A stretch of DNA of 25,763 nucleotides, taken from a virus (lineage: Duplodnaviria; Heunggongvirae; Uroviricota; Caudoviricetes). The notes under the pieces are model-generated. The model did no database searches and was not told the origin of the DNA. It saw only the letters and a list, made by a program, of their open reading frames with translations. The position numbers were made by a program, and so were the translations under genes. The stretch lies in the IMG/VR virus record IMGVR_UViG_2609459852_000021. One strand, 5' to 3'. Positions 10,610 through 22,911 of the stretch are shown one piece after another. Positions within the stretch are counted from its first letter, which is position 1; every line of letters begins with the position of its first letter.

Positions 10610-11032
10610 ATGTTCCTGAAAACCGAATCATTTGAACATAACGGTGTGACCGTCACGCTTTCTGAACTGTCAGCCCTGCAGCGTATTGAGCATCTTGCCT
10701 GGTTGAAAGAGCAGGAAAAAAAGGCTGAATCCAGTGGCAACCTGCAGGTGTCTGTAGAGGATCTTATCAGAGGCGGGGCGTTTCTGGTGGCGATGTCCCT
10801 GTGGCATAACCATCCGCAGAAGACGCAGATGCCGTCCATGAATGAAGCCATTAAACAGATTGAGCAGGAAGTGCTTACCACCTGGCCCACGGAGGCAATT
10901 TCTCAGGCTGAAAACGTGGTGTACCGGCTGTCCGGAATGTCTGAGTTTGTGGTGAATAATGCCCCTGAACAGGCAGAGGACGCCGGGCCTGCAGAGCCTG
11001 TTTCTGCGGGAAAGTGTTCGACGGTGAGCTGA
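10610..11032 (+). CDS. G: tail assembly chaperone G
   Basis: 140-aa ORF matching lambda gpG except for a short diverged internal patch. Confidence 0.93.
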   Translation: MFLKTESFEHNGVTVTLSELSALQRIEHLAWLKEQEKKAESSGNLQVSVEDLIRGGAFLVAMSLWHNHPQKTQMPSMNEAIKQIEQEVLTTWPTEAISQAENVVYRLSGMSEFVVNNAPEQAEDAGPAEPVSAGKCSTVS

Positions 11033-11448
11033 GTTTTGCCCTGAAACTGGCGCGCGAGATGGGGCGACCCGACTGGCGCGCCATGCTTGCCGGGATGTCA
11101 TCCACGGAGTATGCCGACTGGCACCGCTTTTACAGTACCCATTATTTTCATGATGTTCTGCTGGATATGCACTTTTCCGGGCTGACGTACACCGTGCTCA
11201 GCCTGTTTTTCAGCGATCCGGATATGCATCCGCTGGATTTCAGTCTGCTGAACCGGCGCGAGGCTGACGAAGAGCCTGAAGATGATGTGCTGATGCAGAA
11301 AGCGGCAGGGCTTGCCGGAGGTGTCCGCTTTGGCCCGGACGGGAATGAAGTTATCCCTACTTCCCCGGATGTGGCGGACATGACGGAGGATGACGTAATG
11401 CTGATGACAGTATCAGAAGGGATCGCAGGAGGAGTCCGGTATGGCTGA
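10610..11448 (+). CDS. T: tail assembly chaperone G-T fusion (made by -1 frameshift at 11008-11014)
   Basis: The -1 frame downstream of the slippery site encodes ...FDGELSFALKLAREMGRPDWRAMLAGMSSTEYADW..., matching lambda gpT; it has no independent start with an RBS. Confidence 0.85.
11008..11014 (+). other. programmed -1 ribosomal frameshift slippery heptamer G GGA AAG (G to G-T)
   Basis: GGGAAAG lies in the G zero frame as G.GGA.AAG seven codons before the G stop; the -1 frame continues open to 11448. Confidence 0.85.
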
Positions 11449-15031: not shown

Positions 15032-15775
15032 ATGACACAGACAGAATCAGCGATTCTGGCGCACGCCCGGCGATGTGCGCCAGCGGAGTCGTGCGGCTTC
15101 GTGGTAAGCACGCCGGAGGGGGAAAGATATTTCCCCTGCGTGAATATCTCCGGTGAGCCGGAGGATTATTTCCGGATGGCTCCGGAAGACTGGCTGCAGG
15201 CAGAAATGCAGGGTGAGATTGTGGCGCTGGTCCACAGCCACCCCGGTGGTCTGCCCTGGCTGAGTGAGGCCGACCGGCGGCTGCAGGTGCAGAGTGATTT
15301 GCCGTGGTGGCTGGTCTGCCGGGGGACGATTCATAAGTTCCGCTGTGTGCCGCATCTCACCGGGCGGCGCTTTGAGCACGGGGTGACGGACTGTTACACG
15401 CTGTTCCGGGATGCTTACCATCTGGCGGGGATTGAGATGCCGGATTTTCATCGTGAGGATGACTGGTGGCGTAACGGTCAGAATCTCTATCTGGATAATC
15501 TGGAGGCCACAGGGCTGTATCAGGTGCCGCTGTCAGCGGCGCAGCCGGGCGATGTGCTGCTGTGCTGTTTTGGTTCATCGGTGCCGAATCATGCCGCCAT
15601 TTACTGTGGTGACGGCGAGCTGCTGCACCATATTCCTGAACAACTGAGCAAACGAGAGAGGTATACCGACAAATGGCAGCGACGCACACACTCCCTCTGG
15701 CGTCACCGGGCATGGCACGCATCTGCCTTTACGGGGATTTACAACGATTTGGCCGCCGCATCGACCTTCGTGTGA
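15032..15775 (+). CDS. K: tail tip assembly protein K (JAB/MPN metalloprotease-like plus NlpC/P60-like domains)
   Basis: 247-aa ORF matching lambda gpK; JAMM motif H-S-H-x7-S-x2-D visible in HSHPGGLPWLSEAD; Cys/His candidates for an NlpC/P60 fold downstream. The classic lambda annotation starts at an internal Met about 48 codons in. Confidence 0.9.
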   Translation: MTQTESAILAHARRCAPAESCGFVVSTPEGERYFPCVNISGEPEDYFRMAPEDWLQAEMQGEIVALVHSHPGGLPWLSEADRRLQVQSDLPWWLVCRGTIHKFRCVPHLTGRRFEHGVTDCYTLFRDAYHLAGIEMPDFHREDDWWRNGQNLYLDNLEATGLYQVPLSAAQPGDVLLCCFGSSVPNHAAIYCGDGELLHHIPEQLSKRERYTDKWQRRTHSLWRHRAWHASAFTGIYNDLAAASTFV

Positions 15776-16345
15776 AAACGGGGGCTGAAGCCATCCGGGC
15801 GCTGGCCACACAGCTCCCTTCGTTTCGTCAGAAACTGAGCGACGGCTGGTATCAGGTACGCATTTCCGGGCGTGATGTCAGGCGAAACCGGATTAACGGC
15901 GCAGTTACATGAGGCTCTGCCTGACGGCGCTGTGATTCATATCGTTCCCAGAGTCGCCGGGGCCAAGTCAGGGGGCGTATTCCAGATTGTTCTGGGGGCT
16001 GCCGCCATTGCCGGATCATTCTTTACTGCCGGAGCCACCCTTGCAGCATGGGGGGCAGCCATTGGGGCCGGTGGTATGACCGGCATTCTGTTTTCTCTCG
16101 GTGCCAGTATGGTGCTCGGTGGTGTGGCGCAGATGCTGGCACCGAAAGCCAGAACTCCCCGCACACAGACAACGGATAACGGTAAGCAGAACACCTATTT
16201 CTCCTCACTGGATAACATGGTTGCCCAGGGCAATGTTCTGCCTGTTCTGTACGGTGAAATGCGCGTGGGGTCGCGGGTGGCTTCTCAGGAGATCAGCACG
16301 GCAGACGAAGGGGATGGTGGTCAGGTTGTGGTGATTGGTCGCTGA
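15673..16345 (+). pseudogene. I: tail tip assembly protein I, split by an apparent +1 frameshift (ORFs 15673-15912 and 15872-16345)
   Basis: Two overlapping ORFs in adjacent frames each match one part of lambda gpI (N-terminal ubiquitin-like part MAATHTLPLASPGMARICLYGD...; C-terminal part ...GLTAQLHEALPDGAVIHIVPRVAGAKSGG...); total span is 673 nt against 672 nt expected. Could be a real mutation or a sequencing error. Confidence 0.6.
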
Positions 16346-16405: not shown

Positions 16406-19400
16406 ATGGGTAAAGGCAGCAGTAAGGGGCATACCCCGCGCGAAGCGAAGGACAACCTGAAGTCCACGCAGTTGCTGAGTGTGATCGATGCCATCAGCGA
16501 AGGGCCGGTTGAAGGTCCGGTGGATGGATTAAAAAGCGTGCTGCTGAACAGTACGCCGGTGCTGGACACTGAGGGGAATACCAACATCTCCGGTGTCACG
16601 GTGGTGTTCCGGGCAGGTGAGCAGGAGCAGACACCGCCGGAGGGGTTTGAATCCTCCGGCTCCGAGACGGTGCTGGGTACGGAAGTGAAATATGACACGC
16701 CGATCACCCGCACCATCACGTCGGCAAACATCGACCGTCTGCGCTTTACCTTCGGTGTGCAGGCACTGGTGGAAACCACCTCAAAGGGTGACAGGAATCC
16801 GTCGGAAGTCCGCCTGCTGGTTCAGATACAACGTAACGGTGGCTGGGTGACGGAAAAAGACATCACCATTAAGGGCAAAACCACCTCGCAGTATCTGGCC
16901 TCGGTGGTGGTGGATAACCTGCCGCCGCGCCCGTTTAATATCCGGATGCGCAGGATGACGCCGGACAGCACCACAGACCAGCTGCAGAACAAAACGCTCT
17001 GGTCGTCATACACCGAAATCATCGATGTGAAACAGTGCTACCCGAACACGGCACTGGTCGGCGTGCAGGTGGATTCGGAGCAGTTCGGCAGCCAGCAGGT
17101 GAGCCGTAATTATCATCTGCGCGGGCGCATTCTGCAGGTGCCGTCGAACTATAACCCGCAGACGCGGCAATACAGCGGTATCTGGGACGGAACGTTTAAA
17201 CCGGCATACAGCAACAACATGGCCTGGTGTCTGTGGGATATGCTGACCCACCCGCGCTACGGCATGGGGAAACGTCTTGGTGCGGCGGATGTGGACAAAT
17301 GGGCGCTGTATGTCATCGGCCAGTATTGCGATCAGTCAGTGCCGGATGGCTTTGGTGGCACGGAGCCGCGCATCACCTGTAATGCCTGGCTGACCACACA
17401 GCGTAAGGCGTGGGATGTTCTCAGTGATTTCTGCTCGGCGATGCGCTGTATGCCGGTATGGAACGGGCAGACGCTGACGTTCGTGCAGGACCGGCCGTCG
17501 GATAAGGTGTGGACCTATAACCGCAGTAATGTGGTGATGCCGGATGATGGCGCGCCGTTCCGCTACAGTTTCAGCGCCCTGAAGGACCGCCATAATGCCG
17601 TTGAGGTGAACTGGACTGACCCGGATAACGGCTGGGAAACGGCAACAGAGCTTGTGGAGGACACGCAGGCCATTGCCCGTTATGGTCGTAATGTCACGAA
17701 GATGGATGCCTTTGGCTGTACCAGCCGGGGGCAGGCACACCGCGCCGGGCTGTGGCTGATTAAAACGGAGCTGCTGGAAACGCAGACCGTGGACTTCAGC
17801 GTGGGCGCAGAAGGGCTTCGCCATGTACCGGGCGATGTTATTGAAATCTGTGATGATGACTATGCCGGTATCAGCACCGGTGGTCGTGTGCTGGCGGTGA
17901 GCAGCCAGACCCGGACGCTGACGCTCGACCGTGAAATCACGCTGCCATCCTCTGGCACCACGCTGATAAGCCTGGTTGACGGAAGTGGCAATCCGGTCAG
18001 CGTGCAGGTCCAGTCCGTCACCGACGGCGTGAAGGTGAAAGTGAGCCGGGTTCCTGACGGCGTTGCAGAATACAGCGTGTGGGGGCTGAAGTTGCCGACG
18101 TTGCGCCAGCGCCTGTTCCGCTGTGTGAGTATCCGTGAGAACGACGACGGCACGTATGCCATCACCGCCGTGCAGCATGTACCGGAAAAAGAAGCCATCG
18201 TGGATAACGGGGCGCACTTTGACGGCGACCAGAGTGGCACGGTGAATGGTGTCACGCCGCCAGCGGTGCAGCACCTGGCCGCAGAAGTCACTGCAGACAG
18301 CGGGGAATATCAGGTGCTGGCGCGATGGGACACACCGAAGGTGGTGAAGGGCGTGAGCTTCCTGCTCCGTCTGACCGTAACAGCGGACGACGGCAGTGAG
18401 CTGCTGGTCAGCACGGCCCGGACGACGGAAACCACATACCGCTTCAGGCAACTGGCGCTGGGGCGTTACACGCTGACGGTCCGGGCGGTAAATGCGTGGG
18501 GGCAGCAGGGCGATCCGGCATCGGTATCGTTCCGGATTGCGGCACCGGCAGCGCCTGTCACTATTGAACTGATACCAGGGTATTTTCAGATAACAGCGGT
18601 CCCGAAACTGGCTGTATATGACCCGACGGTGCAGTTTGAGTTCTGGTTCTCGGAAAAGCGGATTATCGATATCAGGCAGGTTGAAACCAGCGCGCGTTAT
18701 CTTGGTACGGCGCTGTACTGGATAGCCGCCAGTAGCAATATTAAGCCGGGTTATGATTATTACTTTTATATCCGCAGCGTGAACACCGTTGGTAAATCGG
18801 CATTTGTGGAGGCCGTTGGTCGGGCGAGCGATGATGCGGAAGGTTATCTGAATTTTTATAAAGGGTTGATCAATAAAACGCATCTCGGCAAGGAACTGCT
18901 GGAAAACTTTGAGCTGACGGAAGATAACGCCAGCAAACTGGAGGAGTTTTCGAAAGAGTGGAAGGACGCCAACGATAAATGGAATGCCATGTGGGGCGTC
19001 AAAATTGAGCAGACCAAAGACGGCAAACATTATGTCGCGGGGCTTGGCCTCAGCATGGAGGATACGGAGGAAGGCAAACTGAGCCAGTTCCTGGTTGCCG
19101 CTAACCGTATCGCGTTTATTGACCCGGCAAACGGGAATGAAACGCCGATGTTTGTGGCGCAGGGCAACCAGATATTCATGAACGACGTGTTCCTGAAGCG
19201 CCTGACGGCCCCCACCATTACCAGCGGCGGTAATCCTCCGGCATTTTCCCTGACACCGGACGGGCGGCTGACGGCGAAAAATGCCGATATCAGCGGTAAC
19301 GTGAATGCGAACTCCGGGACGCTCAACAACGTCACGATTAACGAGAACTGCCGGGTTCTGGGAAAACTGTCCGCGAACCAGATTGAAGGCGATCTCGTTA

Positions 19401-19801
19401 AAACAGTGGGCAAAGCTTTCCCCCGTGACTCCCGGGCACCGGAGCGGTGGCCATCAGGGACCATTACCGTCAGGGTTTATGACGATCAGCCGTTTGACCG
19501 GCAAATTGTTATTCCGGCTGTGGCATTCAGTGGCGCTAAGCATGAGAGAGAGCATACTGATATTTACTCCTCATGCCGTCTGATAGTGCGGAAAAACGGT
19601 GCTGAAATTTATAACCGTACCGCGCTGGATAATACGCTGATTTACAGTGGCGTTATTGATATGCCTGCCGGTCACGGTCACATGACACTGGAGTTTTCGG
19701 TGTCAGCATGGCTGGTAAATGGCTGGTATCCCACAGCAAGTATCAGCGATTTGCTGGTTGTTGTGATGAAGAAAGCCACTGCAGGCATCACGATTAGCTG
19801 A
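16406..19801 (+). CDS. J: central tail fibre / host specificity protein J with non-lambda C-terminal receptor-binding region
   Basis: 1131-aa ORF near-identical to lambda gpJ for roughly the first 980 residues; the last ~150 residues (from about nt 19350) are clearly homologous but strongly diverged. Confidence 0.95.
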
Positions 19802-20521: not shown

Positions 20522-20532
20522 GTGGAGTGGAT

Positions 20533-22911
20533 ATGGCAGCAGTAAAAATCTCAGGTGTGCTGAAAGATGGTGCGGGAAAACCAATACAGAACTGCACTAT
20601 TCAACTGAAGGCAAAGCGTAACAGCACCACGGTACTGGTGAACACGGTGGCCTCTGAAAATCCGGATGAAGCCGGGCGTTACAGCATGGACGTTGAGTAT
20701 GGTCAGTACAGCGTCATCCTGTGGATTGAGGGTTCTCAGCCATCACATGTTGGGACCATTACCGTCTATGAAGGTTCCAGTCCGGGGACGCTGAATGATT
20801 TTCTCGGTGCCATGACGGAAGATGATGTCATGCCGGAGGCATTGCGCCGTTTTCAGGCAATGGTGGAAGAAGCGGCACGCAACGCCGAAGCCGCCTCTCA
20901 GAGCGCAGCGGCGGCAAAGAAATCCGAAACTGCAGCGGCATCATCGAAGAACGCGGCGAAAACCTCAGAAACGAATGCAGCTAATAGTGCACAGGCGGCA
21001 GCGACCTCAAAGACTGCATCGGCAAACTCCGCGACAGCAGCCAAAAAATCAGAAACCAACGCGAAAAATAGCGAGACAGCCGCAAAGACGAGCGAAACCA
21101 ACGCAAAGTCCAGCCAGACGGCAGCGAAAACCAGCGAAACGAATACCAAAGCCAGTGAAACTGCGGCGAAAAACAGCCAGGATGCAGCGGCCCAAAGCGA
21201 GAGTGCCGCAGCTGGTTCTGCAAGTGCGGCGGCTTCTTCTGCCACTGCATCAGCCAACAGTCAAAAAGCTGCAAAAACCAGCGAAACTAACGCAAAGTCC
21301 AGCCAGACGGCAGCGAAGACCAGCGAAACGAATGCCAAAGCCAGCGAAACTGCGGCGAAAAACAGTCAGGATGCAGCAGCCCAAAGCGAGAGTGCTGCAG
21401 CTGGTTCTGCAAGCGCGGCGGCTGCTTCTGCCACTGCATCAGCCAACAGTCAAAAAGCAGCAAAAACCAGTGAAACCAATGCAAAGACAAGCGAGACTGC
21501 AGCGGCGAACTCGGCGAAAGCATCGGCAGCAAGCCAGACAGCAGCTAAAGCAAGTGAAGACGCAGCCAGAGAGTATGCAAGTCAGGCAGCAGAGCCGTAT
21601 AAATATGTCTTACAGCCACTGCCTGATGTGTGGATACCATTTAACGATTCACTGGATATGATTACGGGCTTTTCGCCATCTTATAAAAAGATTGTTATTG
21701 GTGACGACGAAATAACGATGCCTGGTGACAAGGTGGTTAAGTTTAAACGCGCATCAAAAGCAACTTACATTAATAAATCTGGTGTGCTGACAGAGGCTAC
21801 CATTGACGAGCCACGATTTGAACGTGATGGCCTGCTTATTGAGGGGCAAAGAACGAACTTCTTCCCGAACAGTACAGACCCTTCGAAGTGGAATAAGTCA
21901 ACTTCACTGGACGTTACAGAAACAGGCACAGATAGTTTCGGTTTTAATTATGGCCGGTTTGTCGTACAGGATTCGATTGTTGGTACAAGTAAAGCGCATA
22001 CCATTATCGGACTGTATTCGAGTACCGGAGGGGTTGATACTTCAGGGGACGAAAAGTATGTAACTATATCCTGTCGGGTAAAAAGTGAAGTTGATAATAT
22101 CGACGTTCGTATTTTATTTGAACATTATGATGGGGAGGTAAGGACATCAATAGGAACAGCAAGCCTGAACCTTACCACCCGCATAATTAGCAAGACAGGT
22201 CAGACAAGCCGTGTTACAGCAAGGTCTGTTAAGGATGATGCAACTGGCTGGATATTTTTTGAGGCTACATTAAAAGCAGATACAACAGAAAATACGGTTG
22301 GTGGTTTCGTCCAGTATTCTCCGGATACAGGTCAGATGGTGGCATCAGGGGATTGTCTCGATGTAACCACTCCCCAGATTGAGGCTGGTACAGGCGCATC
22401 ATCTTTTATTGTTACGGGGGCTGCACCGGTAACGCGGGCAAGCGATATAGTTACAGTCCCAATTAAGAATAATCTTTATAATCTACCTTTTACGGTTCTT
22501 TGTGAGGTACATAAGAACTGGTATAAAACGCCAAATGCAGCACCGCGTGTTTTTGATACCGGCGGTCATCAAACCGGAGCGGCTATTATTCTTGGCTTCG
22601 GTTCTTCAGCAGATTACGACGGATTTCCTTATTGCGATATTGGTGGGGCTAACAGGCGGATAAACGAAAATGCATCGCTTGAAAAAATGGTTATGGGGAT
22701 GCGTGTAAAGTCAGATCAGTCTACATGCGCAGTAAGTAACGGGCGTATATCCAGCGAAACAAAAACCACATGGTCCTGTATTCAGAACTCCGCAATTATC
22801 CGTATTGGAGGCCAGACTACAGCCGGTTTACGCCATTTATTTGGTCATGTCAGGAATTTCAGAATATGGCACAAGGCATTGACTGATGCTCAGGTGGGGG
22901 AGTTAATCTAA
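20533..22911 (+). CDS. stf: side tail fibre protein (lambda Stf-like N-terminus, Ala/Ser/Thr-rich repeat shaft, non-lambda C-terminal receptor-binding region)
   Basis: N-terminus MAAVKISGVLKDGAGKPIQNCTIQLKA... matches lambda Stf; shaft built of SETNAK/TAAKTSE-type repeats; the C-terminal ~430 aa lacks the His-rich lambda tip and ends ...FRIWHKALTDAQVGELI (possibly a LamG/ConA-like jelly roll). Start at ATG 20533; an in-frame GTG lies at 20527. Confidence 0.88.
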   Translation: MAAVKISGVLKDGAGKPIQNCTIQLKAKRNSTTVLVNTVASENPDEAGRYSMDVEYGQYSVILWIEGSQPSHVGTITVYEGSSPGTLNDFLGAMTEDDVMPEALRRFQAMVEEAARNAEAASQSAAAAKKSETAAASSKNAAKTSETNAANSAQAAATSKTASANSATAAKKSETNAKNSETAAKTSETNAKSSQTAAKTSETNTKASETAAKNSQDAAAQSESAAAGSASAAASSATASANSQKAAKTSETNAKSSQTAAKTSETNAKASETAAKNSQDAAAQSESAAAGSASAAAASATASANSQKAAKTSETNAKTSETAAANSAKASAASQTAAKASEDAAREYASQAAEPYKYVLQPLPDVWIPFNDSLDMITGFSPSYKKIVIGDDEITMPGDKVVKFKRASKATYINKSGVLTEATIDEPRFERDGLLIEGQRTNFFPNSTDPSKWNKSTSLDVTETGTDSFGFNYGRFVVQDSIVGTSKAHTIIGLYSSTGGVDTSGDEKYVTISCRVKSEVDNIDVRILFEHYDGEVRTSIGTASLNLTTRIISKTGQTSRVTARSVKDDATGWIFFEATLKADTTENTVGGFVQYSPDTGQMVASGDCLDVTTPQIEAGTGASSFIVTGAAPVTRASDIVTVPIKNNLYNLPFTVLCEVHKNWYKTPNAAPRVFDTGGHQTGAAIILGFGSSADYDGFPYCDIGGANRRINENASLEKMVMGMRVKSDQSTCAVSNGRISSETKTTWSCIQNSAIIRIGGQTTAGLRHLFGHVRNFRIWHKALTDAQVGELI
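21085..21462 (+). repeat. perfect-frame tandem duplication, 2 x 189 bp (63 aa), inside stf; partial third unit to about 21490
   Basis: Units starting at 21085 and 21274 are near-identical at nucleotide level and encode KTSETNAKSSQTAAKTSETN(T/A)KASETAAKNSQDAAAQSESAAAGSASAAA(S/A)SATASANSQKAA twice. Confidence 0.85.

Follow-up and report, generated by a model that had tools for sequence, protein, structure and literature searches.

The window, a 25,763-nt stretch of DNA (virus record IMGVR_UViG_2609459852_000021), contained the lambda late operon from Nu1 through the side tail fibre genes. Open reading frame (ORF) sizes were 181 aa for Nu1, 641 for A, 533 for B, 853 for H, 109 for M, 232 for L, 247 for K, 1131 for J, and 794 for stf, all as in lambda. 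By this measure, the neighboring core genes are intact, in agreement with the first-pass annotation, and no gene besides I was disrupted within 25.7 kb. As in lambda, I was located between K and J (16406–19801). NCBI contig JONE01000097.1 (44.9 kb; GCA_000711605.1), from the draft WGS assembly of Escherichia coli 5-366-08_S1_C3, encoded an identical K protein and had the I region of the window without any difference. On the source contig, the gene caller had annotated only a 137-aa piece of I, with no recorded Pfam match. Phage records beginning at cos aligned from window position 901, which assigns the first ~900 nt to the opposite end of the phage map, in keeping with a prophage that is integrated or circularly joined. 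A minus-strand ORF (1–426) reached the window edge.

Gene I was covered by two overlapping ORFs in adjacent frames, across a span one nucleotide longer than expected, and both of these first-pass observations held. The span was 673 nt in two frames, whereas lambda (J02459), the closest E. coli allele (97.6%; E. coli O166:H15 JNE070796), phage PhiR46_1, and all best matches listed from phage and E. coli collections each spanned 672 nt. All close relatives carried I as one frame, a single uninterrupted ORF of ~223 codons that the window did not have. Removing one base restored a 672-nt, 223-codon ORF (...ISGRDAGETGLTAQLHEAL...). The product of I in lambda, gpI (TAPI, tail tip assembly protein I; Pfam PF06805 Lambda_tail_I; PDB 8iyk, 9e7m), was 97% identical to the window protein over residues 1–69 and 72–223, and its ubiquitin-like domain, linker, and plug were all recognizable; the window gene differed in being split after codon 69 by one extra base and in having codons 63–72 of a second allele type, class B, described below.

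The first ORF (ORF1) encoded gpI residues 1–69, the N-terminal ~60% of the ubiquitin-like domain, with two substitutions relative to lambda, followed by 10 out-of-frame residues (RRNRINGAVT) and a TGA stop. The second (ORF2) was 97% identical to gpI 72–223 over its residues 6–157. It carried the remainder of the ubiquitin-like domain (last helix, last strand, and AGAKSGG), a hydrophobic linker rich in Gly and Ala, and, at the C terminus, the plug domain (gpI 135–223). Both ORFs matched the ubiquitin-like profile PF06805 above its cut-off of 23.8 bits, at 57.7 bits for ORF1 and 27.8 bits for ORF2. Upstream, the K frame ran for 247 codons, and the first 104 residues of its product matched Prok-JAB; the classic lambda K annotation (199 aa, J02459) begins downstream of this start and cuts into the JAB domain.

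Table 1. Coordinates of the features at the I locus (window positions)
Feature	Position	Strand	Description
K	15032–15775	+	247 aa, intact; peptidase domains JAB and NlpC/P60; overlaps I start
I-5' ORF (ORF1)	15673–15912	+	79 aa, frame 1; from the ORF list and PF06805 profile 2–54
Class-B tract	15859–15890	+	31-mer CGCATTTCCGGGCGTGATGCAGGCGAAACCG of intact class-B I (L132) plus one extra T
I-3' ORF (ORF2)	15872–16345	+	157 aa, frame 2 (+1); PF06805 profile 54–83
GUC_AGG_C	15877–15883	+	Sole candidate +1 shift site: rare AGG in A site, overlapping GGC
Extra base	15878	+	T counted against class B: GATG[T]CAGG

Two frameshifts familiar from lambda provide a comparison within the same region. The programmed −1 frameshift of G/GT belongs to the same operon as I and was intact in the window, with the slippery heptamer GGGAAAG conserved at 11008–11014 in the overlap of the G (10610–11032) and T (11014–11448) ORFs. 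That site is conserved, slippery, and −1, whereas the I break is none of these. For stf, the gene is dispensable for plaque formation on laboratory hosts, while I is an essential tail gene. In the window, stf (20527–22911) was a single 794-aa ORF without the frameshift of laboratory lambda. The laboratory stf frameshift resembles the I break in being unprogrammed and in affecting a lambda tail-region gene (PMC10721106).

Position of the break within gpI

The first-pass annotation had placed the break just after the N-terminal ubiquitin-like domain, a placement that the domain boundaries contradict. The PF06805 domain corresponds to lambda gpI residues 14–97 and is itself split in the window at profile position 54 of 83. 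Since the break follows residue 69 and the domain extends to 97, the gene is divided inside the ubiquitin-like domain, ahead of its last beta-strand, and not at the junction with the C-terminal part. ORF2 encodes this last strand together with the conserved C-terminal glycines. For a class-A relative, AlphaFold modeling of the first 116 residues, with modest confidence (pLDDT 61), predicted a beta-grasp fold with strands at 15–19, 30–32, and 60–64, a helix at 74–78, and a last strand at 87–92 (VIHIVP; lambda numbering). This model puts the break in the loop ahead of the last helix and last beta-strand and leaves the AGAKSGG segment after that strand disordered. In Foldseek searches, the model aligned with SAMP1, MoaD, CysO, and ThiS over 84–98 columns.

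Previous work describes the domain as ending at a conserved C-terminal glycine followed by a Gly-rich linker, and predicts that the JAB peptidase of K cleaves at this domain end or linker (Iyer et al. 2006, PMC1779556). K is accordingly a predicted processing peptidase for the gpI ubiquitin-like domain. In cryo-EM structures of lambda and Ur-lambda, gpI 134/135–223 is a trimer plugging the lumen of the tail tip; it binds gpJ through beta-sheet augmentation and keeps hold of the gpH C-terminus, while the N-terminal part of gpI is unresolved in the virion (PMC10721106, PMC12617516). The deposited models 8iyk and 9e7m cover gpI 133/135–223. The whole structural part of gpI was encoded by ORF2, downstream of the frameshift.

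A class-B tract in a class-A gene

Two common families of I alleles were visible among protein matches in a short-peptide search. Class A is lambda-type and reads IAGRDVSTSGLTAQLHETLPDG, whereas class B reads I[A/S]GRD[A/T]GE[T/N]ELSARLNEPLANG, with the tract region ...ISGRDAGETELSARL.... All proteins returned by this search were 128 aa or shorter, so it does not show how often I is broken rather than intact. Residues 66–85 of gpI, comprising the loop and helix after the third ubiquitin-like strand, were hypervariable, while the flanking WYQVRIAG and GAVIHIVPR were nearly invariant. Intermediate combinations in this segment (DVSEVGLTAQLHEAL, DVNETSLSARLHEPLPDG, and DVTADTLTTSLHDPLPPG) also occurred among database matches.

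Relative to the nearest class-A allele, differences in the window I gene were clustered far beyond chance, with eight substitutions and one indel in 27 nt versus seven differences in the other ~645 nt. This cluster corresponded to a class-B tract (Table 1; the window reads GATGTCAGGCGAAACCGGATTA within 15850–15900). The 31-mer CGCATTTCCGGGCGTGATGCAGGCGAAACCG matched exactly an intact class-B I gene, L132 (IMG/VR UViG_2690316233_000019; ...ISGRDAGETELSARLNEPLANG...), which is identical to window 15859–15890 once T15878 is removed. The class-B DNA of two further loci, L127 and L128, also matched the window through the patch. B-specific markers were present at 15861, 15865, 15872–15873, 15879–15881, and 15884–15887, flanked by class-A markers at 15858 and 15891, and the tract is 26–31 nt long. 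Without T15878, the gene was 672 nt and in frame (...RISGRDAGETGLTAQLHEAL...), and its informative sites read as 10 of class A (gene positions 81–186), then 11 of class B (189–214), and then class A only from position 218. The gene is a mosaic in which a run of donor-specific markers lies between recipient-specific markers on both sides, and outside the tract it differs from class-B alleles in being class A everywhere.

The alignment proposed in the first-pass annotation did locate the extra base, although not as a lone stray nucleotide in otherwise lambda-like sequence: it sits inside the 26–31-nt tract from the other allele family. The extra base is T15878 when class B serves as the reference and a G at 15881/15882 (GTCAG[G]C) when class A does. 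The best nucleotide alignment of class A with class B contains two compensating one-base loops, GATG-T-CAG-.-C versus GATG-.-CAG-G-C, and the window has both loop bases, which leaves a net +1. The extra base was outside any homopolymer. The AGG CGA (15880–15885) and GTG ATG (15872–15877) pointed out earlier are both present, and they result from the class-B tract being read out of frame; class B itself also has CGTGATG.

We found the hybrid only in its source. A blastn search of 5,426 complete E. coli genomes did not find the hybrid right junction (best match 90% over 81 nt), nor did exact and degenerate pattern scans of IMG/VR, JGI metagenomes, and GTDB species representatives. An in-frame A/B hybrid precursor (GAAACCGGNTTAACGGCGCAG) was likewise not found in IMG/VR, JGI metagenomes, or GTDB representatives; three pattern matches to it were unrelated chance DNA. 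Exact-protein look-ups of ORF1 and ORF2 (157 and 156 aa) gave no record, and a literature search with the strain name 5-366-08_S1_C3 returned nothing. The allele is private to the E. coli 5-366-08_S1_C3 assembly (JONE01000097.1).

Two apparent further examples were rejected. The 137-aa product, seen on 17 contigs, seemed to represent a widespread broken allele, but only the source contig carries the patch. Among the contigs inspected for this product, four had intact I genes shortened by the gene caller, two had different 1-nt deletions, and the remaining three had a stop codon, a rearrangement, and a run of Ns. A second candidate, P0076 (79 aa, ending ...RINGAVT like ORF1), was discarded because its contig has L, K, and I all in fragments, a probable result of sequencing errors.

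Apart from this case, broken copies of I are not uncommon among E. coli prophages. Two others had 1-nt deletions (L136, L138), and one had a stop codon (L142). Many truncated I forms were found on megabase contigs, and some of these are sequencing errors (e.g., L143). In L127, one nucleotide was lost where class-B-like sequence yields to class-A sequence in the GCNGCN-rich linker, which suggests, from the sequences compared, that out-of-register exchange between allele families may recur. This frameshift falls in alignment A3 columns 225–235, within a GCNGCN repeat, where class-B ...GGGTGCGGCG meets class-A CCATTGCCGG.... Both L127 (1501–2072; Logan SRR17825305) and L128 (1501–2042; E. coli CP049198.1) had I split in the Gly/Ala-rich linker, into 101 + 89 aa and 87 + 102 aa, respectively, further downstream than the window break and past the ubiquitin-like domain. 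In L127, the TGA of the first ORF overlapped the Met135 ATG (ATGA), about where virion-modeled gpI (134/135–223) begins; in L128, K was also without its JAB domain. Forms of 87 aa headed clusters of 64 and 101 member sequences, so linker splits are widespread.

Probable origin and consequences of the lesion

We infer that the lesion probably arose by short-patch recombination between co-resident lambdoid I alleles, which would have left a net +1 and inactivated I. The window covers the late genes of a lambda-like prophage in E. coli 5-366-08_S1_C3, in which a class-A I would have received a 26–31-nt class-B tract with one extra base in its middle, through short-patch recombination or patchy heteroduplex repair between two I alleles. 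Retention of both loop bases at the A/B mismatch would account for the net +1. E. coli genomes typically hold several lambdoid I alleles. The number of places with I-like sequence in an E. coli genome had a median of 2 and reached 12, so donors are plentiful, and a class-B I allele with CGCATTTCCGGGCGTGATGCAGGCGAAACCGA in the same genome would be both the donor and a potential helper. We note that a tract this short, with strongly diverged sequence directly at its right edge, is unusual for RecA-type exchange. The sequence is described equally well by an earlier in-frame A/B hybrid that gained a single T, although no such hybrid was found in any collection searched.

Under short-patch recombination, translation from the I start would end at the TGA at 15910–15912 and yield a 79-aa fragment without the last beta-grasp strand, and the tail-tip plug part (gpI 135–223) would not be made in useful amounts. 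The prophage would be tail-defective unless another prophage provides gpI. A leaky phenotype is conceivable, since only three gpI copies are modeled per virion. Among the three options raised initially (sequencing error, inactivating mutation in a defective prophage, and separate translation of the two parts), an inactivating mutation is the best supported, and the sequencing or assembly error persists as a rival in the form of a mixed consensus.

In that rival, which we regard as possible but doubtful, the strain carries both class-A and class-B prophages, I is in truth an intact class-A gene of 672 nt, and reads from the class-B prophage, anchored in the identical upstream sequence, contaminated the consensus or the polishing of the class-A copy over the first ~30 nt of the diverged block, with both insertion columns kept. 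The underlying reads would then contain a mixture of GATGTCAGCACGTCCGG and GATGCAGGCGAAACCGA. Several features are consistent with such an artifact: the source is a draft WGS assembly, the tract starts where strong A/B divergence starts, the allele was seen in no other dataset, and the retention of both gap columns is expected of a mixed pile-up consensus. Error-derived broken I genes also exist publicly, as in L143, where L, K, and I are all fragmented on a 4.9-Mb contig. However, the absence of any other disrupted gene in 25.7 kb indicates a low indel error rate for this assembly, and the extra base does not fall in a homopolymer. A mixed consensus should also produce patchy class-B sequence over the whole ~200-nt diverged block, whereas all informative sites were class A from gene position 218. 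Furthermore, k-mer-based assemblers cannot invent a junction missing from the reads, and the same contig was reported in two samples, although these are possibly not independent. Taken together, we judge a real lesion likelier than an artifact.

The other question is whether the split gene could still be expressed, either by a +1 shift at GUC_AGG_C, giving a 223-aa gpI (...GRDV-GETGLTAQ...) with the trans-frame peptide DVGETGLTAQLHEALPDGAVIHIVPR, or by re-initiation once ribosomes have terminated at 15912, with GTG 15872 or ATG 15875 as the start, in which case the C-terminal part would be made as a separate polypeptide. We consider this unlikely. In favor of expression, AGG_C forms the A-site half of CUU_AGG_C, the Ty1 site, at which +1 shifting is driven by the slow decoding of AGG together with an abundant Gly-tRNA for GGC (PMC5009743), and the window has the same arrangement of a slow AGG in the A site overlapping GGC. 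AGG and the CGA that follows are rare in the phage genes of the window (4.5 and 3.4 per 1000 codons). A shift anywhere within 15839–15909 would yield a full-length product, everything of gpI seen in the virion is encoded by ORF2, and, since gpI is modeled as a trimer with only three copies per tail, expression of a few per cent might suffice.

Other features of a programmed site were nevertheless missing. GUC in the P site would have to shift to UCA, for which no re-pairing is possible (rule per PMC5009743), and no Shine-Dalgarno-like stimulator was seen near the site at the spacing of prfB. Compared with programmed +1 sites (Ty1 CUU_AGG_C, Ty3 GCG_AGU_U, and prfB CUU_UGA_C), the window site is without a slippery P-site codon, a stimulator, or conservation: the two-frame arrangement recurred in none of the collections searched (the 5,426 E. 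coli genomes, IMG/VR, JGI metagenomes, and GTDB representatives), and I is a single ORF in thousands of cases. The site arose by accident at the mosaic junction, where the class-B tract is read out of frame.

As for re-initiation, the earlier suggestion that the two parts are translated as separate polypeptides received no positive support. Predicted anti-Shine-Dalgarno pairing at the ORF2 starts was weak (−3.8 kcal/mol for GTG 15872 and −2.8 kcal/mol for ATG 15875) compared with the I start (−9.3 kcal/mol) and many tail genes (−7 to −11 kcal/mol). The ORF1 stop lies 35–40 nt downstream of the ORF2 starts, so that ORF2 showed neither a ribosome-binding site of its own nor tight stop/start coupling. 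A separate ORF2 product would contain only a fragment of the beta-grasp fold. With no good ribosome-binding site for ORF2 and no slippery P-site codon, functional expression is improbable and would be possible only as leakiness. Further downstream, the ATG of gpI Met135 (16076–16078), preceded by GGGGCCGGTGGT, marks the start of the cryo-EM-resolved part. Its anti-Shine-Dalgarno pairing (−6.0 kcal/mol) was better than that of either ORF2 start, and the +1-frame TGA overlaps it (ATGA). This ATG is a candidate internal start for the plug domain.

Still less probable is that the lesion is tolerated, with a low level of +1 shifting at GUC_AGG_C (Ty3-like, with no P-site slip) or of ORF2 re-initiation being sufficient for three gpI per virion. 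The least credible origin is a local template switch at a quasi-palindrome, in which the change was copied from an inverted repeat within I rather than from another allele: an imperfect repeat does exist (15822–15832, GTTTCGTCAGA; 15878–15888, TCAGGCGAAAC; 82% complementary), but it covers at most GCGAAAC and not the linked changes at 15861, 15865, and 15872–15873, it is also present in intact class-B alleles, and the patch has no second copy elsewhere in the window, so we rejected it in favor of the one exact class-B 31-mer, which explains all changes including GCGAAAC.

Implications for the I locus

Whether by short-patch recombination or by assembly error, the locus is an ordinary frameshift pseudogene or an artifact in an essential tail gene. 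It is neither a new genetic arrangement nor a novel route to the protein. The best annotation for I here is a frameshifted pseudogene or a mark for resequencing, and the prophage is predicted to be tail-defective; in itself, this has little significance beyond annotation. The comparison of alleles points to the loop that follows beta-strand three in the ubiquitin-like domain of gpI as the hypervariable, mosaic part of I, and out-of-register A/B exchange, at this loop and at the L127 linker, could plausibly produce I pseudogenes repeatedly. If the lesion were tolerated, an intact, covalently attached ubiquitin-like domain would not be strictly required for lambda tail assembly. A viable allele of this type would inform on the role of the gpI ubiquitin-like domain and on its predicted cleavage by the JAB peptidase of K.
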